The notes under the pieces were generated by a model that was not told the DNA's origin, searched no databases, and saw only the letters and a program-made list of their open reading frames with translations. From Eledone cirrhosa (taxonomy: Eukaryota), in NCBI GenBank assembly GCA_964016885.1, contig OZ024742.1, positions 145,452,001 through 145,516,000 on the forward strand: 64,000 nucleotides of DNA, given 5' to 3'. Shown here piece after piece: positions 1,752-54,044 of the stretch (its first letter is position 1; every line of letters starts with the position of its first letter). The translations under genes and the position numbers were made by a program.

Positions 1752-1830
<79 letters not shown>
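1752..1830. repeat. (CT)n(TA)n microsatellite, left flank of the HHR tandem array
   Basis: Direct reading: ctctct... followed by tatata... Confidence 0.95.
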
Positions 1831-1833
<3 letters not shown>

Positions 1834-2009
1834 AGTATGCATGTATACGTACATACATATATGTATACAGACGTACAGTAGCATGCACATATATATATAT
1901 ATATATACATATATACATACATATGCATACAGGTACACATACATATATGCACGTATCAGTTTAGCGGCGCTAACGTCGCTTTGTTCGTTTGTAAACAAAC
2001 TGAACAGCC
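1829..2009 (-). repeat. Inverted partial copy of the 468-bp unit at the 5' end of the array
   Basis: Reverse complement of 2284-2464; joins the first unit through a GCC microhomology at 2007-2009. Confidence 0.9.
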
Positions 2010-2176
2010 ATACTAAGAGTGAGAAATGAAATTTCGTTTTCATTTTGTTTCAATTTATCGTTTTCGGTATGCCTGACCGATTTAACTCACTCAATATGCA
2101 AATTAGGCTGCTCAGCCGTTAATTTTCATAAGGAAAGTATATACTTTCGAACGTTCAACTATCTGGCAGATGGGTA

Positions 2177-2221
2177 AACGGTGCTGATGATAGCTAACAA
2201 GCTTGAAACTAGTACATCGTT
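2177..2221 (+). ncRNA. Minimal type I hammerhead ribozyme, array unit 1
   Basis: AACGGTG-CTGATGA-T-AGC(TAACAA)GCT-T-GAAA-CTAGTA-CATCGTT. Stem I AACGGTG/CATCGTT, intact CUGAUGA/GAAA core, palindromic ACTAGT stem III, GUA cleavage triplet ending at 2214. Confidence 0.88.
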
Positions 2222-2644
2222 CCTGTGTCAGTGTTGAACAAAAAGGTGACGTGGTTGCCTTAACACCGTATGGCATAAATTCAGGCTGTTCAGTTTGTTT
2301 ACAAACGAACAAAGCGACGTTAGCGCCGCTAAACTGATACGTGCATATATGTATGTGTACCTGTATGCATATGTATGTATATATGTATATATATATATAT
2401 ATATGTGCATGCTACTGTACGTCTGTATACATATATGTATGTACGTATACATGCATACTTACATTTAAGTAAGTGCCATACTAAGAGTGAGAAATGAAAT
2501 TTCGTTTTCATTTTGTTTCAATTTATCGTTTTCGGTATGCCTGACCGATTTAACTCACTCAATATGCAAATTAGGCTGCTCAGCCGTTAATTTTCATAAG
2601 GAAAGTATATACTTTCGAACGTTCAACTATCTGGCAGATGGGTA

Positions 2645-2689
2645 AACGGTGCTGATGATAGCTAACAAGCTTGAAACTAGTACATCGTT
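2645..2689 (+). ncRNA. Minimal type I hammerhead ribozyme, array unit 2
   Basis: Identical to 2177-2221 (+468). Confidence 0.88.
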
Positions 2690-3112
2690 CCTGTGTCAGT
2701 GTTGAACAAAAAGGTGACGTGGTTGCCTTAACACCGTATGGCATAAATTCAGGCTGTTCAGTTTGTTTACAAACGAACAAAGCGACGTTAGCGCCGCTAA
2801 ACTGATACGTGCATATATGTATGTGTACCTGTATGCATATGTATGTATATATGTATATATATATATATATATGTGCATGCTACTGTACGTCTGTATACAT
2901 ATATGTATGTACGTATACATGCATACTTACATTTAAGTAAGTGCCATACTAAGAGTGAGAAATGAAATTTCGTTTTCATTTTGTTTCAATTTATCGTTTT
3001 CGGTATGCCTGACCGATTTAACTCACTCAATATGCAAATTAGGCTGCTCAGCCGTTAATTTTCATAAGGAAAGTATATACTTTCGAACGTTCAACTATCT
3101 GGCAGATGGGTA

Positions 3113-3157
3113 AACGGTGCTGATGATAGCTAACAAGCTTGAAACTAGTACATCGTT
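3113..3157 (+). ncRNA. Minimal type I hammerhead ribozyme, array unit 3
   Basis: Identical to 2177-2221 (+936). Confidence 0.88.
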
Positions 3158-3580
3158 CCTGTGTCAGTGTTGAACAAAAAGGTGACGTGGTTGCCTTAAC
3201 ACCGTATGGCATAAATTCAGGCTGTTCAGTTTGTTTACAAACGAACAAAGCGACGTTAGCGCCGCTAAACTGATACGTGCATATATGTATGTGTACCTGT
3301 ATGCATATGTATGTATATATGTATATATATATATATATATGTGCATGCTACTGTACGTCTGTATACATATATGTATGTACGTATACATGCATACTTACAT
3401 TTAAGTAAGTGCCATACTAAGAGTGAGAAATGAAATTTCGTTTTCATTTTGTTTCAATTTATCGTTTTCGGTATGCCTGACCGATTTAACTCACTCAATA
3501 TGCAAATTAGGCTGCTCAGCCGTTAATTTTCATAAGGAAAGTATATACTTTCGAACGTTCAACTATCTGGCAGATGGGTA

Positions 3581-3625
3581 AACGGTGCTGATGATAGCTA
3601 ACAAGCTTGAAACTAGTACATCGTT
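3581..3625 (+). ncRNA. Minimal type I hammerhead ribozyme, array unit 4
   Basis: Identical to 2177-2221 (+1404). Confidence 0.88.
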
Positions 3626-4048
3626 CCTGTGTCAGTGTTGAACAAAAAGGTGACGTGGTTGCCTTAACTCCGTATGGCATAAATTCAGGCTGTTCAGTTT
3701 GTTTACAAACGAACAAAGCGACGTTAGCGCCGCTAAACTGATACGTGCATATATGTATGTGTACCTGTATGCATATGTATGTATATATGTATATATATAT
3801 ATATATATGTGCATGCTACTGTACGTCTGTATACATATATGTATGTACGTATACATGCATACTTACATTTAAGTAAGTGCCATACTAAGAGTGAGAAATG
3901 AAATTTCGTTTTCATTTTGTTTCAATTTATCGTTTTCGGTATGCCTGACCGATTTAACTCACTCAATATGCAAATTAGGCTGCTCAGCCGTTAATTTTCA
4001 TAAGGAAAGTATATACTTTCGAACGTTCAACTATCTGGCAGATGGGTA

Positions 4049-4093
4049 AACGGTGCTGATGATAGCTAACAAGCTTGAAACTAGTACATCGTT
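4049..4093 (+). ncRNA. Minimal type I hammerhead ribozyme, array unit 5
   Basis: Identical to 2177-2221 (+1872). Confidence 0.88.
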
Positions 4094-4392
4094 CCTGTGT
4101 CAGTGTTGAACAAAAAGGTGACGTGGTTGCCTTAACACCGTATGGCATAAATTCAGGCTGTTCAGTTTGTTTACAAACGAACAAAGCGACGTTAGCGCCG
4201 CTAAACTGATACGTGCATATATGTATGTGTACCTGTATGCATATGTATGTATATATGTATATATATATATATATATGTGCATGCTACTGTACGTCTGTAT
4301 ACATATATGTATGTACGTATACATGCATACTTACATTTAAGTAAGTGCCATACTAAGAGTGAGAAATGAAATTTCGTTTTCATTTTGTTTCA

Positions 4393-4426
<34 letters not shown>

Positions 4427-4721
4427 CATCAATACACTACCAATGATGAGTGGTCAGTTCTACAGTCAAAGTCCCTATGGAAAATGACAGGAAACAGAAT
4501 TCTTGTACAAGCTGAAAACAATTTATATATATATATATGTCATTTCTGAATTTGTTTAGCAAGATTCTTTATCTGAAAACGTGTGTTGAAACCGATATTG
4601 TTATACTCTGGGAGGGTCATGTTGCCAATAAGAAACACATGCACCAGTTGCTTTCACTTCAATTTATTATAAATTTCCGGTTGGTTGGTTGGTTCCACAA
4701 CCAGATGATTGTTCATATATT

Positions 4722-4764
4722 GTCAAAGTTCTTTCGTCACACATTCTGTGACCACTTCAGTGAC
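4722..4764 (-). ncRNA. Hammerhead ribozyme family C, core-mutated copy
   Basis: Reverse complement of 5319-5361, but the core reads CTGAAGT instead of CTGAAGA. Confidence 0.55.
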
Positions 4765-4926
4765 TGGGGATTCTTTTCTTTGTTTTTGTGCCTCTCCTTT
4801 GTTCTGTCCTACGCCATCTTGTTTTTGTGTGTGAACACACATGAATGGACCTGTTATTTTTATCTAAAGACATTTTTTCCAATTCCAGCTCGCCCGTCTC
4901 TTCAATCTATCTATTTTCTCATTCTT

Positions 4927-4962
4927 TCTTCTGATGAAGGACTAGTGTCTGAAACGTCAAGA
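4927..4962 (+). ncRNA. Minimal type I hammerhead ribozyme, family B
   Basis: TCTT-CTGATGA-A-GGAC(TAGT)GTCT-GAAACGTC-AAGA. Stem I TCTT/AAGA, stem II GGAC/GTCT, palindromic ACGT stem III, GUC triplet. Confidence 0.8.
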
Positions 4963-5114
4963 CCCTCTTCCTGCTATTTCAAGTGTTCCTTTCATATACT
5001 ATACTGATTGTGTTGTTATTTCTGTTTACCTTTTACATACATATATGTGTGTGAGCGTGAATTTAATAAACATTTATCGTACTGCCTCTCTGTTCTGTCC
5101 CTGTTCAATTTTTC

Positions 5115-5160
<46 letters not shown>

Positions 5161-5318
5161 TATATATACATATATATATGTTGTTTTACTTTGGGAGGGT
5201 CATGTTGCCAATAAGAAACACACGCACCAGTTTCTTTCACTTCAATTTATTATAAATTAAATTTATAAATTTAGGAATTTATAAAGGAGAGGCACAAGAA
5301 CAAAGAAAAGAATCCCCA

Positions 5319-5361
5319 GTCACTGAAGAGGTCACAGAATGTGTGACGAAAGAACTTTGAC
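5319..5361 (+). ncRNA. Minimal type I hammerhead ribozyme, family C
   Basis: GTCA-CTGAAGA-G-GTCAC(AGAATGT)GTGAC-GAAA-GAACTT-TGAC. Stem I GTCA/TGAC, 5-bp stem II, CUU triplet. Confidence 0.75.
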
Positions 5362-5534
5362 AATATATGAACAATCATCTGGTTGTGGAACCAACCAACC
5401 AACCGGTAATTTATAAATTCCTAAATTTATAAATTTAATTTATAATAAATTGAAGTGAAAGCAACTGGTGCGTGTGTTTCTTATTGGCAACATGACCCTC
5501 CCAAAGTATAACAACATATATATATGTATATATA

Positions 5535-5564
<30 letters not shown>

Positions 5565-5566
<2 letters not shown>

Positions 5567-6263
5567 GATAGATATAGATAGGTAAATATACACGGGTGTG
5601 TATGATTGTGTATAGAAGATTATATTAATAAGAGGAATTCCAACTTTGTCTGATTTACTCGTTTTATTTACAATCCTTTAAAATATATATAATGGTATTA
5701 TAATGAAATAGTATGATAGAATATTAAATTCTAAGTGTTAATTGAACAAGTACTTTCATGCTTTCGCAATCTTCAGGTTCATGATATGTGGTGACAGTCG
5801 AGTTTGCAATTTTCAATTGTAATGAGATGGGTAAATTTCCTACCTTTTATACATTTTATACAGAGAAAAGTGGCTCCAGAATGCAAAGCCCTGTAAACTG
5901 TATTTCGACCAATCAGTGTGTAGTTTCACTGAATTACTACAGCTGATTGGTTTAAGCGTCACGGCTGGTTGAGCATGCTAACGACCAATAGTCATATCCA
6001 ACGTATCAATTGTTTTGCTTTTTGAAATGATGAAAATAGCATTTTCTATTAATCATCACCATCAACATCACTTTTATTATTATTATTATTGTTGTTGTTG
6101 TTGTTAGTGGTCGTGGTCATAGTGGTAGTAGAAGTAATACCCCTAGGCGTTATTATTGTTCATTTAGCTTGGGTTTGAATTTATCAATAAAATTCTTTTC
6201 TTTGATTTTTCTCTTGATTTCACTTGGGCTGTGTAATTTGTAGAATGGGAATATTATAAATAT
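5565..6263 (-). repeat. 3' pseudo-LTR of the PLE
   Basis: Near-identical to 9766-10471 (offset 4199 before a (GTT)n length difference; few substitutions seen). Confidence 0.92.
5743..5781 (-). ncRNA. Minimal type I hammerhead ribozyme in 3' pLTR (family A)
   Basis: Minus strand TGAAC-CTGAAGA-T-TGC(GAAA)GCA-T-GAAA-GTACTT-GTTCA. Perfect 5-bp stem I, GNRA-capped stem II, palindromic AAGTACTT stem III, CUU triplet. Confidence 0.85.
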
Positions 6264-6845
6264 TCCCTGACCACATGTTGCCAGGTGGCCGCTTAGGGGT
6301 ATCTGACGGACATTTGGGTCTCTGATTTGTTGACGGTGTACCCGTGCACGTTCCGATAGTGCATTTCCAGTTTGACCGACATATAGTTCTTCACAATTCG
6401 GGCATTTAATGCAGTAAATTAGATTTCTGCTTTTGCAGTTCATATTTGCATTTGGGAATATTTTTCCAGTTTTTGTTTTCATATATTGACCGGCGTGTAT
6501 GGATTGACATGTGCCGCATCGATTATCATTGCATTTAGATACAGTGAATGATTGGTCTTTGTTGTTAAGGTCAAACTTTGCTTTTGTTAGCAATTGCTTC
6601 AAATTTTTTGGCTGTCTTTTACTAAGAGTCAAAGATCGATCTGTGATTAAGCCTTTTAATTCATTACTTTGAGCAATGATCGGTAGGTTTGCTTTGGCAG
6701 TGTTGAAGATATTCTGGTGACATGGGTTGTGTGTCATTATAAATGGTATGACCAGTTCTTGGTTTCCTCTTCCTTGGGTTGTTCTAAGTTGTTGTATAGG
6801 TATTTTTATAGCCCGCTGTATGCCATTTTCTATAAGTAGAGATGG
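6153..6845 (-). CDS. PLE linker Zn-finger plus GIY-YIG endonuclease (in-frame continuation of the RT after a TAG at 6846-6848)
   Basis: SKCNDNRCGTC linker; NCKSRNLIYCIKCPNCEELYVGQT (GIY-YIG with Cys motifs); ERARVH, GH, E...IDKFKPKLN. 36 open codons connect it to the RT frame. Confidence 0.9.
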   Translation of the reverse strand, partial: PSLLIENGIQRAIKIPIQQLRTTQGRGNQELVIPFIMTHNPCHQNIFNTAKANLPIIAQSNELKGLITDRSLTLSKRQPKNLKQLLTKAKFDLNNKDQSFTVSKCNDNRCGTCQSIHAGQYMKTKTGKIFPNANMNCKSRNLIYCIKCPNCEELYVGQTGNALSERARVHRQQIRDPNVRQIPLSGHLATCGQGIFIIFPFYKLHSPSEIKRKIKEKNFIDKFKPKLNEQ

Positions 6846-8481
6846 CTATTTTTGTTTGAGCAAAAATTCTCTTAGTTCTGTTAGGCGTTTGTACCTGGTA
6901 TTCGTATCTTCTACAATGGTACAAATTCTTCTGGCTAGGCAGTATGGGATGTTGTGTTTTGTATGAGGTGGATGGCACGACTTAAAATTCAGATATTGAT
7001 GGGTGTCTGTGTGTTTATAATATATATCCGTGGTAATGGTGGTGTCGTTTTTGATTATCATTATATCTAGGAATGGTAATTTGGTCCTACTCATCTCTTT
7101 TGTGAATTGGAGAGATGGGTGTAGGTTATTGAGGAGGATATTGAACTCATCCAGAGTATCTAGAGATTCTGTCCAGATGATGAAACAGTCGTCAAGGTAT
7201 CTCTTCCAAGATTTTTCAATGTACTTTCTAAAGTCAGTACTATATTTTTCCTCTATTTCTTGGTAGAGTTGTTGTTCTAAGTATCCCATTACAGAGTTCG
7301 CGTAAACGGGAGCAAACTTCGTTCCCATCGCTGTGCCTCTAATTTGGATGTAATTCTTTCCATTGAAGAAGAAAGTGTTGTTTTCCAGAATAAGTTTAAC
7401 TGCGTCTAATATAAATGGCGCTGTGAATCTAATGGGAATCACTTCTCTATGTTTTTCCACCCAGTATTTAACCGCCTTTATTCCTAAATCATGTGTAATG
7501 TTGGTGTAAAGGCTTACCACATCAAAACTGAGTAGAAGTGAATTCGTTTCCGTGGTTTTGGGAAGATGGGACAGGAAGTCGATATCATCCCGGATAAAAC
7601 TGGGTATGTGAATACATAGTGGTTTCAAAATACTGTCAACAAAATTGCTTAGACGGTGAGTGGGGCATGTTGGACCAGCTATAATAGGTCTAAGTTTTAA
7701 GTCTTTTGGGTGTAATAATTTAATGTACTCACTGTTTTGTTCTCTTACTGCCAGTTGTATTTCTTTTGACTTATGAACTTTCGGTAGGCCATACAGGTTG
7801 CTGGGTTTCGGCTCAAAATTGGTGATGTAGTCTCTTTCCTTATCAGTAAATGAGTTGTGGTATTTTGAAGCCAGGTTGTTGATCTTCTTCATGATGTTGT
7901 GGTCTATATTTGACGGTATTTCATGATAGAATGTTGTGTCTTTCAGTTGTTCCTCAACCAAATCCTTGTAGTATTCAGTATCCATTATAACAACTGCACC
8001 CCCTTTATCTGCTTGTTTAATTATTATTGTTTTATCATTTTGTATACGTTTAAGTGCAGACATTTCTGATTTGTTAATGTTTGGCCTAACATTAGTATTA
8101 TGTCTAAGAGGAAATTTAGACAGGATGTCAATGTATTGGTCGAGATAGATATTTCTTCCTTTTGGCGGAGTGAAATTTGATTTATTCTTTACTAGTGATT
8201 CATCACTCTCATTATTTTTATCAGCGAAGAATTCTACAAGACGTAATTTTCGACAGAATTCTTGGGTATCCTCCTTCAGTTCTTGGTGGTTGACTGTTGG
8301 AGTCGGTGTGAATTTCAGTCCTTTTTGACAGAATTTGCATTTCATCATTGTCGAGATCTCTTTTAGATAAATTAATTATTTTAGGATCTACGTCTACAGC
8401 TGTTTTGGGTATGTTTCCTCCTGGAGTTTTTCTTTTTCCGGTTTTTGTTGTCCTGACGTTAAAAAATGAATTTTTCTCTGT
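6846..8481 (-). CDS. PLE reverse transcriptase (apparent 1-nt insertion at 8322-8326; nonsense codon at 6846-6848)
   Basis: KQADKGGAVV, YGLPKVHK, LRPII, FDVVSLYTNI, QIRGTAMGTKFAP, RYLDD, LPFLD, YYKHTD, SCHP. Removing one A restores the N-terminal IINLSKRDLDNDEMQILSKGLKFTPTP motif, and that frame is open back to a TGA at 8482-8484. Confidence 0.93.
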
Positions 8482-9737
8482 TCAGGATTTATATTCCTGT
8501 TGGTGTTCGCTTGATGAACTTTTGGTCGTGATATTATATTTGGTTTCGTTATGTATTTTGTCCTATTTTTGGTATTCTGTATATTATTTTTCTTCCTGTT
8601 AGCATTATTTTTAACAATCTGGGAAAATGACCTAGGTTTGCTTTCAGGTTTAGATCGTTTTTTCGTCCAGTTTCTTGTGGGCAATCTCTGTTGAGATCTT
8701 GAGAGTGATCTGGTTATTCTACGTTTTGTTTCCACATTCCTTGTTGGTAGTCTCTGTTGAGATCTTGAGAATGATCTCCTGGTTTTACTACTTCTCATGG
8801 TCTGGTCAAAGGAATACCTATCGTGTTTGTGCTTTTTGTTCATGTTGTGTGCGATAGGGTGTTTTTGTAGAAAAAGCGAAGAGTTATTACCGTAGTTCTT
8901 CTTTGATTCAAGGTAAGGTGAGTGTTTGTGTTGGCACGTGTTCTGGCGTATGTTGTGTTGATGAGATTGTCCACTTTTAATGCTTTTTCTCAGGGTTCCA
9001 GAGTCTTTACCGTAATTTGCAGCATATTCATCGAGAAATAATTGTTTCTGCTGCCATACCTTTCTTGATTTGTTTTCTTCTTTTGAGATATCTCCGATCC
9101 ATAGTTCTCGTAGTTTTTCAGCTATAATACCAGTCGTTAGCTTTGAAATTTCAACTTCAATTTGGTCATCAATAGCTTCATATTTGGCTTTGTAGCGGGA
9201 TTGTTTACATTCAGAAATGGAGATGTCGGTCCTGAATTTTGTCAATGTAAGTTCCCATCGGAGTTTTGTTTCTTCTTCTGGTTCTCCTGCAATTTCTGTA
9301 ATTAGGTATTTACGAGGGAGTATGGGTGCCGTTAGAGAGAGCCATTTCGAATGTGTTTCGACATATTTTTCGCATCTGTATGCTTTCCAGAAATTTTGTT
9401 TTCTTATGTTAAGGAATTTTTTCCATGTCTTCCACATTTCTTTTCTTATTCGATGTGTTTTGTTTTCCAAATTTCTTTCGTTTATTTCTGACATCCAAGG
9501 GGGTTGTGGTAGGCTTTCTCTTGTATCTTTGATAACTGTTGGTATAATTTCAGCTAAATTCTTAATTTCAGAGTTTATATGTTCAGTTATAAGTTTTCCG
9601 TCTGTAGATTGTTTTTCTATTTCCTTTAAAATAGAGGATTGTGTGTCCATCATCGTGATAAGTGTTGATAATTTCGATGATATCTCCTTTAGAATTCTTT
9701 CTGATTCTGTTGGTTTCATTTGTTGCTTTCCAGACAT
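8394..9737 (-). CDS. PLE ORF1, 447 aa: predicted helical/coiled-coil N-half, very basic low-complexity C-terminus with a 22-aa duplication
   Basis: Intact ATG-TAG ORF between the 5' pLTR and the RT, overlapping the RT frame by ~90 nt; no domain recognised by eye. Confidence 0.8.
   Translation of the reverse strand: MSGKQQMKPTESERILKEISSKLSTLITMMDTQSSILKEIEKQSTDGKLITEHINSEIKNLAEIIPTVIKDTRESLPQPPWMSEINERNLENKTHRIRKEMWKTWKKFLNIRKQNFWKAYRCEKYVETHSKWLSLTAPILPRKYLITEIAGEPEEETKLRWELTLTKFRTDISISECKQSRYKAKYEAIDDQIEVEISKLTTGIIAEKLRELWIGDISKEENKSRKVWQQKQLFLDEYAANYGKDSGTLRKSIKSGQSHQHNIRQNTCQHKHSPYLESKKNYGNNSSLFLQKHPIAHNMNKKHKHDRYSFDQTMRSSKTRRSFSRSQQRLPTRNVETKRRITRSLSRSQQRLPTRNWTKKRSKPESKPRSFSQIVKNNANRKKNNIQNTKNRTKYITKPNIISRPKVHQANTNRNINPEQRKIHFLTSGQQKPEKEKLQEETYPKQL
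8460..8466 (-). promoter_or_regulatory. Candidate -1 ribosomal frameshift slippery heptamer U_UUU_UUA
   Basis: ORF1 codons CAT TTT TTA (H-F-L); a -1 slip enters TTT TTT AAC GTC..., the RT frame. Confidence 0.7.
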
Positions 9738-9941
9738 GTTGGCATATACACAATAGGAATATATATATAGATATAGATAGGTAAATATACACGGGTGTGT
9801 ATGATTGTGTATAGAAGATTATATTAATAAGAGGAATTCCAACTTTGTCTGATTTACTCGTTTTATTTACAATCCTTTAAAATATATATAATGGTATTAT
9901 AATGAAATAGTATGATAGAATATTAAATTCTAAGTGTTAAT

Positions 9942-9980
9942 TGAACAAGTACTTTCATGCTTTCGCAATCTTCAGGTTCA
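9942..9980 (-). ncRNA. Minimal type I hammerhead ribozyme in 5' pLTR (family A)
   Basis: Identical to 5743-5781. Confidence 0.85.
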
Positions 9981-10043
9981 TGATATGTGGTGACAGTCGA
10001 GTTTGCAATTTTCAACTGTAATGAGATGGGTAAATTTCCTACC

Positions 10044-10188
10044 TTTTATACATTTTATACAGAGAAAAGTGGCTCCAGAATGCAAAGCCCTGTAAACTGT
10101 ATTTCGACCAATCAGTGTGTAGTTTCACTGAATTACTACAGCTGATTGGTTTAAGCGTCACGGCTGGTTGAGCATGCTAACGCCCAAT
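10044..10188 (-). promoter_or_regulatory. Putative Pol II promoter in pLTR: two TATAAAA boxes and three CCAAT boxes
   Basis: TATAAAA on the minus strand at 10044-10050 and 10053-10059; CCAAT/ATTGG at 10108, 10145, 10184; placed upstream of the HHR and ORF1. Confidence 0.5.
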
Positions 10189-10286
10189 AGTCATATCCAA
10201 CGTATCAATTGTTTTGCTTTTTGAAATGATGAAAATAGCATTTTCTATTAATCATCACCATCAACATCACTTTTATTATTATTATT

Positions 10287-10319
<33 letters not shown>

Positions 10320-10475
10320 CGTGGTCATAGTGGTAGTAGAAGTAATACCCCTAGGCGTTATTATTGTTCATTTAGCTTGGGTTTGAATTTATCAATAAAA
10401 TTCTTTTCTTTGATTTTTCTCTTGATTTCACTTGGGCTGTGTAATTTGTAGAATGGGAATATTATAAATATATTA

Positions 10476-10528: not shown

Positions 10529-11394
10529 ACACATATATGTATGTAAAAGGTAAACAGAAATAACAACACAATCAGTACAGTATATGAAAGGAACACTTGA
10601 AATAGCAGGAAGAGGGTCTTGACGTTTCAGACGCTAGTCCTTCATCAGAAGAAAGAATGAGAAAATAGATAGATTGAAGAGACGGGAGGGCTGGAATTGG
10701 AAAAAATGTCTTTAGATAAAAATAACAGGTCCATTCATGTTGACATCTCTTGGAAAACTGTTGGTGCTGGCGTTTTGAGTATGATTTATTTTTTTTAGAA
10801 AAATGGATGATTGAGCGCGTCTACCTGAAATGGAAAAAAAAACGTTTTGTAAAAAGAGTTATACTTGTCCACATGCTTAAGCATGTGTGTGTGTTATTAA
10901 ATGTCCTTACGAAGCTAAGAAGAAATGTGTGTGTGTGTGCTTGTAAGTACGAAGCTATGAGCAAAAGTATGTAAATAAAAGGGTGTGTATGTGTGTATAC
11001 AGAGCAGTGAAGGGAAAAGTGGAGTGTGCATATTTTGTCGGCCTGTATTAGTTGTAAGAAAATATGTTTATGATCATGAGAGAGTGATAGGAATCTAGGA
11101 ATGAATGTACAAGTGCGTGTGATATTAAAGAAATTGGGGAGGTGAGTTGTGTCCAAGAAGGGAATAGGACCTAAGGCAGTGAATCAGGCTCTGTTCTGTC
11201 CTGGTACGCATGGCCTGTGATCCATGATGAAAAAGGACACCCAAGACTGAGACATGTAAGGAAGAATGACCAGGAGAACAGAAATGATGGGCGACAGGAG
11301 TATCCAAACCGAGTCGTATGTCCCTCAAATGCTCTGCAAAATGGTCCGCCATTATATATATACATGTGTTGAGTGTCAAAGGCCAACAAAGCAC
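10529..11394 (-). mobile_element. 5'-truncated second PLE (family B): GIY-YIG C-terminal remnant plus HHR-bearing 3' region
   Basis: ORF 11125-11394 reads DHFAEHLRDIR...TPVAHHFCSPGHS...RTRTEQSLIHCLRSYSLLGHN (PLE GIY-YIG C-terminus); 10529-10740 is an inverted near-identical copy of 4839-5050. Confidence 0.78.
10617..10652 (-). ncRNA. Minimal type I hammerhead ribozyme, family B
   Basis: Minus strand TCTT-CTGATGA-A-GGAC(TAGC)GTCT-GAAACGTC-AAGA. Confidence 0.8.
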
Positions 11395-21599: not shown

Positions 21600-23400
21600 G
21601 AGATAAATGTGTCCGGGATGATGCCGGTGTACTTAGTGTCACGAATGATCAGAAAAAGGAGGCCTGGAAATGACATTATGAGAGACTGATGAATGGGAGA
21701 GAGAGAAATTACCCTTGGTAGATCCGACAGAGGGACCAGCTATTGAGATTGACGAATATAGGGTCCAAGAGGCGATTAGAGAAATGAAAAATGGTAAGGC
21801 TGCCGGACCATCGGGAATAGTTGCTGAGATGCTGAAGGCATCAGGGGACGTAGGCACTAAACTGGTTGCACGCATCATCAATCAGGCTATATATGGTGGT
21901 GTCATACCCAAAGACTGGTGCAGCAGTATTCTCATAAATTGCTACAAGAGTAAAGGGGATGCTTTGGAGAGGAGCAATTATAGGGGTATAAAACTGATAG
22001 ATCAGGTTATGAAAGTGGCAGAAAGGATTTTAGCACAACTAATTAGAGAAAGGGTCAAACTAGATGAGATGCAGTTTGGTTTTGTGCCTGGGAAGAGTAC
22101 AGCAGATGGTGAGATAATTGCAAGAGAGGTTCTTAGAGAAGAATAAGCCACTATACTTAGCCTTTGTTGACCTAGAGAAGGCCTTTGATAGGGTACCCCG
22201 ATCTGTCATCTAGTGGTCCCTAAGGAAGCTAGGTGTTGAAGAATGGCTTGTGAGGACAGTGCAAACTTTGTACAGAGCTACTCTCAGTAAAGTCAGGGTA
22301 GGAATGGAGTTTAGTGAGGAATTCCAGATACAAGTAGGAGTACATCAGGGTTCGGTCTTCAGCCCGCTCTTGTTCATTATAGTCCTCCAAGCCATAACAG
22401 AGGAGTTTAAGACTAGCTGTCCATGGGAACTTCTCTATGCTGACGATCTGGTTCTTATAGCAAAATCAGTAGAGGAGCTAGAGAATATATTCTGGCTATG
22501 GAAACAGCAGTTGGAAGCAAGAGGACTGAGAGTGAATCTAGCTAAGACAAAAGTGTTGATGAGTAAAAAAGAGGACAAAACCCTGATTCCATCAGGGAAA
22601 TGGCCATGTTCGATATGCAGAAAAGGAACTGGCATAAATTCTATAAAATGCACACAATGCAGATCCTGGGTACACAAGAGATGTAGCGGGATAGCAGGCA
22701 AACTAACGGGTAGGGAGAAATATGTATGCAGTAGATGTACAGGGAAATTAGACAGTAGAAGTCGCATTGATAGACACATTTTTCAAATGCAGGAGGGTGC
22801 TATAGAAGTGGTGGATAGCTTCCGGTACCTAGGAGATCAGATTAGCATGGGAGGAGGGTGTTCCGAGGCCATAGTATCTAGAATAAGGACGGGTTGGAAG
22901 AAGTTTAGGGAGCTGCTTCTTCTGTTGACGAAGAAGGGTTTCTCCCTGCGTACGAAAGGCCGGTTGTATGATATCTGGTAGTGAGACATGGGCAGCAACT
23001 GCAGAGGATATGCGACGGCTGGAGAAAAATGAGGCAAGCATGCTCCGTTGGATGTGCAGTGTAAATGTGCGTGAACGACCCAGCATAAATGTGTTGAGAG
23101 AGAAACTGTGTCTGAGAGGGATAGAATGTAGTGTACGGGAGAGGAGACTGAGGTGGTATGGACATGTGATGCGCATGGAGGATGACCGATGGGTGAAGAA
23201 GTGCCAGGAATTGCCAGTTGAAGGAAGACGTGGTAGAGGTAGACTACGAAAAACATGGGCGAAGGTGGTGAGAACAGACCTCAGATCATTGAAGCTCACG
23301 GTGGAGATGACGAGTGGAGAGATGCTGTGCTGAAAAAGACCCGTCCCACCCTTGCAAGCAGGGAAAAGCGGACGTAAAATGATGATGATGATGATGATGA
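21600..23400 (+). mobile_element. RTE-clade LINE, 5'-truncated and decayed: RT, Cys-rich PHD-like insert, (GAT)n tail
   Basis: KAAGPSG, NYRGIKL, QFGFVPG, GVHQGSVFSPLLF, LLYADDL, FRYLG, LRWYGHVMRM; several frameshifts and stops. Confidence 0.92.
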
Positions 23401-37726: not shown

Positions 37727-37801
37727 CTGCAAATAAGGATAGAAAAACATTTACTATTATAGCAAGAGAAAAGAAAAGAAGAATTAATATTTGATTAGAA
37801 A

Positions 37802-37837
<36 letters not shown>

Positions 37838-37840
<3 letters not shown>

Positions 37841-38745
37841 AGCTGTACCTTGAGATAAAAAGGACAGATCCTGAACACTATAGATCTTGTTTGCAGTCTG
37901 ACCTGGACACAATGCAACAATGGATCTCAGACTGGCAACTCAAGCTAGCTGTGGACAAGTGCACCACCATGCATTTTGGGAGTAAAAACCCAGCGTCCAC
38001 ATACTCCCTCCACAGCACTAATATCAAGAAGTATTCCTGTGAACGTGACCTGGGCATTACGGTCAGCAGCGATTTGCGTTGGACGAGGCACGTCTCTAAA
38101 ATTGTCAAGAAGGCCGAGGGTGTCTTAGCATCACTCAGCAAGATCTTTGTCAGTCGCTCTCCAGATATCTATTTAAGGCTGTATACAGCTATGGTGCGAC
38201 CACACTTAGAATTTGCATCACCAATCTGGAACCCCTATCTTGCTCAGGACATTCACCGCCTGGAAACTGTTCAGAGATGTGCAACCAAGCGAATACCCTC
38301 CATCAGGCATCTACCATACTCTGAGCGCCTTGCTTCCCTGGGCATGGATTCATTGAAGCTCCGACGCCTGGCAACTGACTTGGTAAACACCCACAAAATT
38401 GTTAACCATGTTGCCAACAACAACCCTGAGTGCCTTTTCGATTTCCATGTGTCTAACACACGTGGACATGCCCACAAAGTAAGAAAACAGCACAGTTCCC
38501 ATGACTTTCGGAAACATTTTTTCACGCTCAGAGTTGCTGAAGCATGGAACAAACTACCTGCATCAGTTGTTAGCTGTCGAGACACTGCATCCTTTAAAGC
38601 CTCCATGCTTCCCGAGATCCGCCAACACTACAGCTAACACATACACACATGTACTTCCCTGACATTTGTGTATTATTCTATGTACTATATTGACGAGTTG
38701 TGGTGCACCTGAGCACTTTACACAATAATTTCATTATTATTTTTC
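37838..38745 (+). mobile_element. CR1/L2-type LINE 3' fragment with an uninterrupted frame, in SDR intron 3
   Basis: LQSDLD..QQW..DWQLKL..DKC..MHFG, ERDLGI, LYTAMVRPHLEFASPIWNPY, TRGH, FFTLRV..AWNKLP; flanked by (TA)n. Confidence 0.9.
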
Positions 38746-43640: not shown

Positions 43641-43936
43641 ATATATATATATATCAAAGCACCCAGCACTCACTGTAAATGAGGTTGGTGTTAGGAAGGG
43701 CATCCAGCTGTAGAAATCAAGCCAGAATCAGTTCCCGTCCCACCCTTGCAAGCAGGGAAAGAGCGGACGTAAAATGAAATGAGAAAATAAAAAATATATA
43801 TATATATGTATGTATATATATATATTGCTCAAGGAAACAACACATCGCCCAGTCTGAGAATTGAACTCACAACCTTTTGATTGCAAGGCGAATGCTCTAA
43901 CCACTAAGCCATGTACCTACACGTATATATATATAT

Positions 43937-44060: not shown

Positions 44061-44062
<2 letters not shown>

Positions 44063-44455
44063 GTACATGGCTTAGTGGTTAGAGCATTCGCCTTGCAATC
44101 GAAAGGTTGTGAGTTCAATTCTCAGACCGGGTGATGTGTTGTTTCCTTGAGCAAGACACTTTATTTCACATTGCTCCAGTTTGCTCAGCTGTAGAAATGA
44201 GATGATAGGGACTGGGGTCCGTATCATTCCACTGCAAAGTGGTTGTGGAGGTGCCACGGCAAAAAAAGGACCCATCCCACACTGTAAAGTGGTCGTGGAG
44301 GTGCCACGGCAAAAAAGCACCCAGCCCACACTGTAAATGAGGTTGGTGTTAGGAAGGGCATCCAGCTGTAGAAATCCAGCCAGAATCAGTTCCCGTCCCA
44401 CCCTTGCAAGCAGGAAAAAAGCGGACGTAAAATGAAATGATGATGATTATGATGA
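44061..44455 (+). mobile_element. tRNA-derived SINE, V-like family, with an internal ~50-bp duplication
   Basis: Match to 14389-14729; the AAAGTGGT..TGGAGGTGCCACGGCAAAAAA segment is duplicated. Confidence 0.85.
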
Positions 44456-50974: not shown

Positions 50975-52072
50975 ATCATCATCATCATCATCGTTTAACG
51001 TCCATCTTCCAGCATGGGTTAGACGGTTTTGTTCCATTTGATGCGGGAATGGTCAGAAGACCATGTCTCGCACAGAAGTGTCTCTGGCAGGTTTTTTTTA
51101 CAGCTGGATGCCCTTCCTAACACCAGCCACTTTTACAGTGTGGACTGGGAGCCTTTTTACTGTCTCCTACCAGGCTATCTTACAGTGTGGACTGTTGTGT
51201 CATCAACACAATGGACAGAATGGGAGAGGGAGGGTGGGGTAGGGTGTACATTGAGTTAAGAGGTGCCTACTGACTGTAGATTTGTATGCAAGGGAAGGCG
51301 GGTCTTCTGTACAACTGCATGGTGCCAAAGATCTCAATCCAGTGACATTGTCTTAGAGAGGTGTGAGCAAGGTCAGTTTTTATCACCTCATCCCAGGTTT
51401 TTCTTGGTCTACCCACTTGGTAGCATCCATCAATTTTCATTGTTCGACATTTGGAACATAGAATGGAATTTCTACCTACTCCTTTCTTACACACTGAGCA
51501 TGGCCATTTCCTAGAGGGCACTTGTGCCCTATTCTCCTTTCTATATACTAGAACTTTAGTCTTAGACAAGTTAACTTTAAGGCCTTTTGATTCTAGGCCA
51601 TGCTTCCATGTTTGGAACTTCTTCTCTAGTTCAGCCATGGATTCAGCTATGAGAATTAGATCATCTGCATATAGAAGTTCCCATGGGCAGTCAGTCTTAA
51701 ACCCTTCTGTTATAGCCTGTATGACAAAAATAAATGGGGGGGGGGGGCTAAGGACAGAGCCCTGGTGAACCCCTACTATTACACTAAATTCTTCACTATA
51801 TTCATTGTTAATTCTAACTTTGCTGACAGTTCCTCTATACATGTCTTGTATAGCTCTCACAAGCCATTCATCTACTCCTAGTTTTCTAAGAGCCCACCAG
51901 ATTAAGGTGCGTGGGACTCTGTCAAAGGCTTTCCCCAAGTCATCAAAAGCTAAGTAGAGGGGTTTACTTTTAGCTAGGTACTTCTCCTGTAGTTGCCGTA
52001 CAAGGAAAAGAGCATCCGTGGTGCTTTTACCTGGCACAAACCCAAATTGCATTTCATCCAGATCAATTTGGT
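50975..52072 (-). mobile_element. RTE LINE fragment with 3' UTR and (GAT)n tail
   Basis: DEMQFGFVPGKSTTD...GVHQGSVLSP...LLYADDL...WPCSVC; same family as 21600-23400. Confidence 0.85.
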
Positions 52073-52089
52073 CTATATATATATATATA

Positions 52090-53000
52090 TATGCAAAAAG
52101 TAAACAGAAAGCAAATGACACAGTACAATGAAGAAATATATTAATTTTATGCTTGAGACAGTAGGAAAAGAGTCTTAATGTTTTTGATGCTAGTCCTTCA
52201 TCAGAAAATAAAATGAGAAATTAAAGAAGAAATAAAAAGAGGAAAAGATAGTAGTCAGAAAAGAATAGTGGAGAAAAAGTGGTAGTTAGTTGCGGTATAT
52301 TGGTGTAAGGCAAAAAGCAATGAGAAAATCCAGTGATCAAAAAAGATATCCAAATGGAAGTTCAGGTAGAGTCCAGATAAAAATCCAATGTAGGAATCCA
52401 ATGAATTTGAGGGTCCGTGTAAGCATCAAGCACACACACACACTCTTTTACTTACATATACACACACATATCCTCTTAGCTTCGTACAGACGTATAACAA
52501 CACACACACATATAGCTCTATATACAAAACGTCTTTTTCCATTTCGGGTAGATGCGGTCCATCATCCACTCTTCTAAAAAAAGTATATCATACACAAAAC
52601 ACCAGCAACAACAGTTTTCCAAGAGATAGTAACATGAATGGACCTGTTATTTTTCTCTACAAACATTTTTTTCTGATTCCACTCCGCCCGTCCACTCTAT
52701 CTTTCTAATTTCTCATTCTTTCTTTTGATGAAGGACTAGCATCCGAAACGTTAAGATCCTCTTCCTGCTATTTCAAACATTAACCAAATATATTCCTTCC
52801 ATATACTGTACCGATTGTGTTATTTCTGTTTACCTTTTATATATATATATGTATGCAAAAGGTAAACAGAAATAACAAAGCAAACGACACAGAACAATGA
52901 AGAAATATATTAGTTTGACACTTGATATAGTTGGAAAGTGTCTCAATGTTTCGGACGCTAGTCCTTCATAACAAAAATAGAATGGGAAATTTAATTTCTT
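52090..53000. mobile_element. Family-B PLE-derived element: alternating inverted HHR-bearing segments
   Basis: 52500-52840 resembles the reverse complement of 10540-10870; inverted partial copies at ~52090-52250 and ~52850-53000. Confidence 0.7.
52721..52756 (+). ncRNA. Hammerhead ribozyme family B, C3U variant
   Basis: TCTT-TTGATGA-A-GGA(CTAGCA)TCC-GAAACGTT-AAGA. Confidence 0.55.

Positions 53001-53237: not shown

Positions 53238-54044
<807 letters not shown>

Follow-up and report, generated by a model that had tools for sequence, protein, structure and literature searches.

Introduction

Metazoan non-LTR retrozymes, in the accessible parts of their descriptions (Cervera and de la Pena 2020, PMC7229834; Li, Clavereau and Pollet 2026, bioRxiv 10.64898/2026.07.22.740005), are non-coding, low-GC tandem units of 150-450 nt, mostly fewer than seven to an array, each with a type I hammerhead ribozyme. 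In amphibians, stem III is short and cleavage is dimer-dependent. A PLE origin and mobilisation in trans have been proposed, and it has already been argued that retrozymes are non-autonomous PLE derivatives (bioRxiv 10.64898/2026.07.22.740005). So far, the movement of retrozymes by PLE enzymes and the formation of PLE tandems from RNA circles have been argued from co-occurrence and sequence trees.

EN+ PLEs of the Neptune-like kind form partial tandems with 5' truncation, and their insertion signature is a tail at one end only, 30-40 nt long, plus an inverted 5'-truncated copy; palindromes at inversion points and a bias towards (TA)n are also described (PMC8557442, PMC3846280, in the parts available). 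Their minimal hammerheads have a palindromic stem III and a highly conserved G10.1-C11.1 pair, such motifs cleave weakly, and a circular template has been proposed tentatively (PMC4209133, in part). Non-autonomous tandem PLEs are known from Chlamydomonas; those of the Chlamys clade, such as MRC1, insert as multicopy head-to-tail elements, match an autonomous partner at the 3' end and belong to a clade without canonical hammerheads, as far as the available text of PMC8557442 describes them. For the coding element PAc (Poseidon, Anolis carolinensis), the available part of PMC11167929 reports that in vitro RT starts at two neighbouring internal sites, downstream of the hammerhead, and that this produces the tail; both strands of AT-rich targets are cut and extended.

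Here we analyse a tandem array in a 64,000-nt stretch of Eledone cirrhosa DNA, hereafter the window. The array is one young insertion of a dispersed, high-copy, non-coding family. Judged by sequence, the unit would be classed as a metazoan non-LTR retrozyme, and its insertions have the features of a non-autonomous PLE; it is a known kind of element and an unusually clear example of it. None of the papers found by literature searches deals with this family.

Results

Five near-identical units and an inverted arm

The array and its flanks comprise the following features.

~1777-1828, no strand: left (TA)n microsatellite, the target; a target-site duplication is unreadable inside (TA)n
1829-2009, minus: inverted arm, unit positions 278-458 by sequence comparison; the fixed 'no-tail' terminus forms its outer end
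2007-2474, plus: unit 1, 468 nt, non-coding
2475-2942, plus: unit 2, same as unit 1
2943-3410, plus: unit 3, same as unit 1
3411-3878, plus: unit 4, single substitution at 3669
3879-4346, plus: unit 5, same as unit 1
2170-2226, plus: type I hammerhead motif from pattern scan, recurring every 468; predicted cut after 2214
2096-2103, plus: octamer ATGCAAAT, a putative element
2133-2148, no strand: 16-bp palindrome with TATATA core; in some copies, inversions fold back close to it (unit 127, 146)
2339-2456, plus: TA-rich segment, variable in length and predicted to form a long hairpin, directly upstream of the no-tail terminus
4337-4398, plus: tail of ~62 nt between both fixed termini, with a predicted stem-loop inside; its end (unit position 52) meets (TA)n
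4396-4425, no strand: right (TA)15

The five 468-nt units (GC 0.36) start at 2007, 2475, 2943, 3411 and 3879, and a single mismatch (3669 A>T) is found in all of them together. A window ORF scan revealed no stop-free frame of at least 120 aa overlapping the array. The inverted arm, which has no hammerhead, is the reverse complement of 2284-2464; it shares 3 nt of microhomology (GCC, 2007-2009) with unit 1 at their junction. These data confirm the first-pass annotation of five near-identical non-coding units with an inverted partial copy at the 5' end and (TA)n at both flanks. The 3' extension of ~50 bp that it described corresponds to the 52-nt start of a sixth unit (4347-4398), but the true tail, measured from the second fixed end, is ~62 nt. 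The unit is longer than those of the retrozymes introduced above, and the tail is longer than that of EN+ PLEs.

The units are near-identical and the count of five comes from the assembly, as would be expected if a single unit had been expanded during assembly. However, arrays of 2-17 units are found at many other loci, where alleles and microsatellite lengths differ from locus to locus, and unit 4 has its own substitution, so that such an artefact is scarcely credible.

The octamer and the palindrome had also been singled out, and both lie at the positions given. They are kept only partly in subfamily B (defined below): ATGCAAAT is retained in subfamily A and replaced by ATGCATAT in 9/28 subfamily B copies, and the palindrome is not retained in most subfamily B copies. 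The octamer occurs 9 further times in the window outside the array. This degree of conservation is not enough to count as evidence of function for either element. Some 30 nt before the extended stem I begins there is a TATATA (window 2138-2170), which might be a putative promoter resembling that of a pLTR. At L018 and L031, inversions fold back at or beside two palindromes of the unit, of 16 and 8 bp (unit positions 127 and 146), which suggests self-priming as a second route to an inverted arm.

A dispersed, high-copy family

The assembly searched comprises 3.0 Gb in 1,796 contigs. Exact hammerhead matches numbered 10,122 for the 40-mer of subfamily A and 8,152 and 2,439 for two variant patterns, which are mutually exclusive by the base at 2181; reversed-pattern controls gave 0. 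The genome-wide presence of other copies, which the earlier annotation had made a check on its reading, is thus established by at least 20,713 exact matches in three subfamilies. Scaled up from the initial 70 Mb of a single contig, subfamily A would have ~5,300 insertions. The unit of subfamily B is 422 nt, with an identity of 76% overall, 89% across the hammerhead region and 61% just downstream. The window haplotype is 0% divergent from several other loci, and therefore the window array is among the youngest members.

The first 100 subfamily A matches listed form 52 clusters with 1, 2, 3, 4, 6 and 8 copies (26, 14, 8, 2, 1 and 1 clusters, respectively). Classification as satellite DNA was rejected: long clustered arrays are not the rule, as 48 of these 52 clusters have 1-3 copies, and only a few arrays are long. 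Arrays have grown to at least 17 units (L188) or are two-unit periodic (L069, L191), and these three appear to be small satellites forming from insertions. The family occupies several Mb of the genome and seeds small satellites. At L069:7250-9400, an array of the main family is adjoined by an unrelated 310-nt hammerhead tandem family of 7 units with a fold-back head, a U.U-closed stem II and a 6-nt palindrome.

Additionally, the unit was present at very high contig depth in run X2, which may be the assembly's own sample, and at low contig depth in X1, X8, X3, X6 and X7, which are labelled as other organisms. Our guess is that the low-depth copies are carry-over, and horizontal transfer is not claimed. 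Raw reads of X23 (X8's organism) gave 0/12.8 million records, a figure that counts as no test of the unit's presence. In X12 (X2's organism) depth was uneven and rose near 2175; contigs are uninformative on starts or levels. No run recorded as RNA was among those listed with the unit, which speaks neither for nor against its transcription.

Two fixed termini of PLE type

Of the terminal tails, 41/43 end at about unit position 52, where (TA)n follows. A second fixed end, without the tail, lies at about unit position 458 and is also joined to (TA)n. The family thus has two fixed 3' ends ~60 nt apart, and its 5' truncation is variable. Across 50 loci, 13 have the tail end only, 8 the no-tail end only, 1 neither and 28 have ends on both strands. 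One of these 28, L067, consists of two converging insertions. The other 27 are two-armed insertions, and all 27 combine one tail and one no-tail end, facing outward (2 with an extra tail end nearby); none (0/27) has two ends of one kind only. The coding PLE families of this genome have the same two end types, with tails of ~37 and ~64 nt.

The fixed ends lie ~250 and ~312 nt downstream of the predicted cut, and the ribozyme cut therefore does not define them. Evidently, reverse transcription starts at two fixed internal sites and not at a ribozyme-made end, an arrangement like that of PAc (PMC11167929, in part). The proposed origin of the array by PLE-type reverse transcription is supported by its PLE-type insertion ends; the two internal start sites had been overlooked. 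With its partial tandems, 5' truncation, inverted truncated copies, tail at one end only, palindromes at inversion points, (TA)n bias and a hammerhead whose stem III is palindromic, the family matches EN+ PLEs, and we conclude that it is very probably a non-autonomous PLE. Two fixed termini, inverted arms and (TA)n targeting are absent from the available parts of the retrozyme descriptions compared. A target-site duplication of more than 4 bp, a retrozyme trait, would be masked here, as both flanks are (TA)n.

Three other readings were set aside. Random twin-priming was rejected because the inverted arm has a fixed outer end. A MITE was rejected because the length of the inverted arm varies, the arm is absent from many copies, and there are no fixed terminal inverted repeats. 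A Pol III SINE-type element was set aside by inference, since transcription of several units in a row would be stopped by the T4-T8 runs of the tail.

No coding sequence joined to the unit

Queries with the PLE proteins of the window and of seven further loci found a match in 3/122 loci that contain the unit (partly overlapping) and in 0/18 additional ones. At L047, the only same-strand case, the unit is inserted in (TA)n after another family's own pLTR; at L125 and L142 it is likewise separated by (TA)n from another family's own end. The family is non-autonomous, with no examined copy joined to coding sequence. Unlike in an autonomous or EN+ PLE, the RT plus GIY-YIG ORF between pLTRs is absent from the loci examined.

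Because every end feature is PLE-like, the units might be pLTR fragments of an autonomous PLE outside the sample. The GIY-YIG sample (PF01541) is small (10,596 first-look candidates, 150 scored, 50 loci read), and the 50 loci read contain no pLTR resembling the unit. This explanation is nevertheless very improbable: no ORF is joined to the unit in the 122 and 18 loci above, the three near cases are split by (TA)n from another family's own end, and the tail passes straight into the next unit. Moreover, where G or T comes directly after the tail (73 tails), TA-like or unit sequence follows in every case. Searches with tail-continuation patterns, stem II variant patterns and widely spaced pairs found no helper sharing unit sequence, and against two coding PLE families the tail gave only short T-rich likenesses that were not significant (blastn E>=0.14). 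In contrast to the Chlamys elements, which match an autonomous partner, the family thus has no partner match found and does have a hammerhead; and, unlike EN+ PLEs, it has no sequence match to any sampled pLTR.

Coding PLEs are plentiful in the genome, some with frames of 938 and 1,096 codons, and a full-length one lies in the window itself at 5565-10458 (minus strand). It encodes an RT with a C-terminal GIY-YIG domain and a CxxxxCxxC linker, is Neptune-like, and has (TA)n flanks and two near-identical pLTRs with hammerheads (predicted cuts 9947 and 5748; U.U-closed stem II); its frame is split by in-frame stops. The earlier proposal of a PLE RT acting in trans is therefore supported by coding PLEs in genome and window and by the PLE-type ends, but an autonomous PLE with the unit was not found. 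Window positions 4595-5517 and 10545-10740 hold fragments of two other hammerhead-bearing PLE-type families, one arranged inverted, with hammerhead motifs at 4931, 5323 and 10648 (minus strand).

A type I hammerhead with an atypical stem II

Pattern scanning detected a type I hammerhead in 5/5 units, with CUGAUGA at 2184-2190, GAAA at 2205-2208 and the palindromic ACUAGU at 2208-2213. Cleavage is predicted after 2214 and at the equivalent positions 2682, 3150, 3618 and 4086. Stem I has 7 bp including one G.U pair and, beyond a 2-nt bulge, 5 further pairs. Stem II is closed by a U.U mismatch, followed by A-U, G-C, C-G and U-A, and lacks the conserved G10.1-C11.1 pair. A U.U mismatch also closes stem II in the coding PLE of the window. 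Compared with the minimal hammerhead consensus of PLEs, the palindromic stem III / loop 3 is present as ACUAGU, whereas the G10.1-C11.1 pair with an extra nucleotide after A9 is missing; the closing U.U likewise sets the unit apart from metazoan non-LTR retrozymes. Rfam gave no hammerhead match at the gathering threshold, nor in the best 150 of 173 rows at E<=10; its miRNA matches to the array were rejected as TA-repeat noise. The description of an intact minimal type I hammerhead in each unit thus stands for motif, 7-bp stem I and palindrome, but not for the closure of stem II, where U.U takes the place of G10.1-C11.1, nor for a match in Rfam.

Folding gave pair probabilities of 0.90-1.0 for stem II and 0.18-0.79 for stem I. 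The double-hammerhead fold was predicted 5.1 kcal/mol above the free minimum, with an inter-unit stem III probability of 0.00 in the ensemble. The unit also has a strong circular fold (z -9.4), which we discount because alternating TA/TG sequence pairs with itself.

Comparison of the three subfamilies showed that pair 2181:2217 is G.U, U.G or A-U, depending on the subfamily, and that the distal stem I helix changes from AUGGG/CCUGU to GAAGG/CCUUU. The common change in the hammerhead core falls at the free position 7. For 18 hand-picked lineage representatives from 73 distinct variants, 88.9% of cells pair, and the covariation score is equalled by 1/500 shuffles; two of the five measures, both of pair type, were no better than shuffles, and the sequences come from three related lineages. 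The outermost pair of the 7-bp stem I is missing in 17/18 representatives. Conservation of the core is partly built in, since subfamilies B and C were found via hammerhead patterns. Covariation of stem I between subfamilies argues for a functional ribozyme.

Variant hammerheads were also observed in coding PLE families: the pLTR hammerheads of L131, L132, L134, L142 and L149 have a U3-A8 core variant, and the L143/L127 family has GCGCAACCGGUA in place of the expected GAAA.

One unit as the probable template of each insertion

Junctions of 5' ends to (TA)n were found 9 times at the cut and 9 times at one control site. Of 66 mapped 5' starts, a single one was no more than 5 nt from the cut, where 2.5 would be expected; as the loci of this count had been selected for an intact hammerhead, a pile-up is less likely to be seen in it. 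Between units, 168/168 cut-site junctions have no indel. Because there is no 5' pile-up at the cut and the junctions are seamless, linear cut monomers are unlikely templates.

Lineage alleles were fixed in all units of an array in 136/144 cases, 9/21 arrays had private shared alleles, and 33 haplotypes were found across 45 loci. Divergence was 0.40% within an arm (median 0.30%), 0.52% between arms (median 0.30%) and 4.0% between loci. Thus each insertion, with both arms, descends from one unit. The data point to a single unit as the template. A circle would be the likeliest form of that template, as the simplest account of one haplotype per insertion, and this is a weaker step than the identification of the family as a non-autonomous PLE.

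The rolling-circle origin proposed earlier fits the single-haplotype arrays and the seamless cut-site junctions, but an uncleaved multi-unit transcript fits the junctions too. The same non-autonomous PLE, primed at two sites, could copy an uncleaved read-through transcript of a freshly homogeneous array, with the hammerhead dispensable or serving only to trim the 5' end. Such a template equally predicts the lack of a pile-up at the cut, long donor arrays exist (L034, L188), the hammerhead is atypical with an active fold that is not the predicted minimum, and PAc used unprocessed RNA in vitro (PMC11167929, in the part available). However, the 136/144 fixed alleles and 33 haplotypes at 45 loci would need repeated single-unit bottlenecks: a new allele would have to be carried by one unit and then amplified again until all units and both arms had it. 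The covariation of stem I also speaks against it, and we regard this template as rather unlikely.

Alternatively, about one unit would be inserted and the tandem would grow later by unequal crossing-over or slippage between terminal direct repeats, the birth of a satellite from a pLTR-like unit. The 52-nt terminal repeat is a possible seed, the dimer-periodic variants at L069 and L191 and the array of 17 or more units at L188 are of the kind expected, and such growth has been proposed for retrozymes (bioRxiv 10.64898/2026.07.22.740005, in part). Against this, divergence is similar within and between arms, and hence units are about as old as the insertion. Both arms are multi-unit in L033 and L034, and half of the 52 clusters from the first 100 matches listed are already multi-copy. 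Later growth as the source of the tandems is therefore improbable.

Discussion

Taken together, we consider it rather probable that the window array is one recent insertion, made in trans by the RT/GIY-YIG protein of a coding PLE that copied round a hammerhead-cut, single-unit circular RNA. Read-through transcription of an array would yield a multi-unit RNA, which would be cleaved via a double hammerhead formed through ACUAGU, perhaps with the assistance of a protein; here, dimer dependence like that of amphibian retrozymes is a prediction. Ligation of the 468-nt monomer would give the circle. Both strands of a (TA)n site would be cut, as they are in the AT-rich targets of PAc, and priming would occur at unit position 52 from one strand and at ~458 from the other. 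Copying would continue for a variable number of rounds, and the two cDNAs would be joined head-to-head by microhomology or fold-back. Some arrays (L069, L188, L191) have grown afterwards at the DNA level.

Published results count against this explanation, in the parts of the sources available: minimal hammerheads of PLEs cleave weakly (PMC4209133), 8/9 Xenopus retrozyme dimers showed no cleavage in vitro (bioRxiv 10.64898/2026.07.22.740005), and uncleaved RNA served PAc as its main substrate, with insertion left normal by mutation of the hammerhead (PMC11167929). The lack of the G10.1-C11.1 pair, the inter-unit stem III probability of 0.00 and the long and dimer-periodic arrays also speak against it. 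PAc is a coding element with a hammerhead dispensable in vitro, whereas a non-coding unit and an inferred circular template are at issue here.

More tentatively, and with less confidence than for the explanation above, we hypothesize that the family is a circular-RNA parasite, still active, which exploits Neptune-type PLEs without sharing sequence with its helper, RNA structure being the sole means of recognition. Unit circles would be made by a double hammerhead closed by U.U and assisted by a protein, and a dimeric PLE enzyme would copy one circle from both cut strands at the two fixed sites. If true, insertions in the thousands would be the first direct genomic record of rolling-circle reverse transcription behind tandem and inverted PLE insertions.

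In this family, the end signature of PLEs is seen directly on a unit of retrozyme type, and there are near-identical young members. Moreover, the 468-nt unit suits the existing in vitro PLE assay as a substrate.

Other sequences in the window

Further repeats were observed elsewhere in the window. Two tRNA-like copies in opposite orientation (43850-43913 and 44062-44129) lie around a TA repeat and are probably SINE-derived. A C2H2 zinc-finger array of nine 84-bp repeats occupies 53238-54044 (minus strand). LINE-type reverse transcriptase fragments, which we take to be RTE- and CR1-like, are present at 21682-23400, 37795-38637 and 51267-52220.
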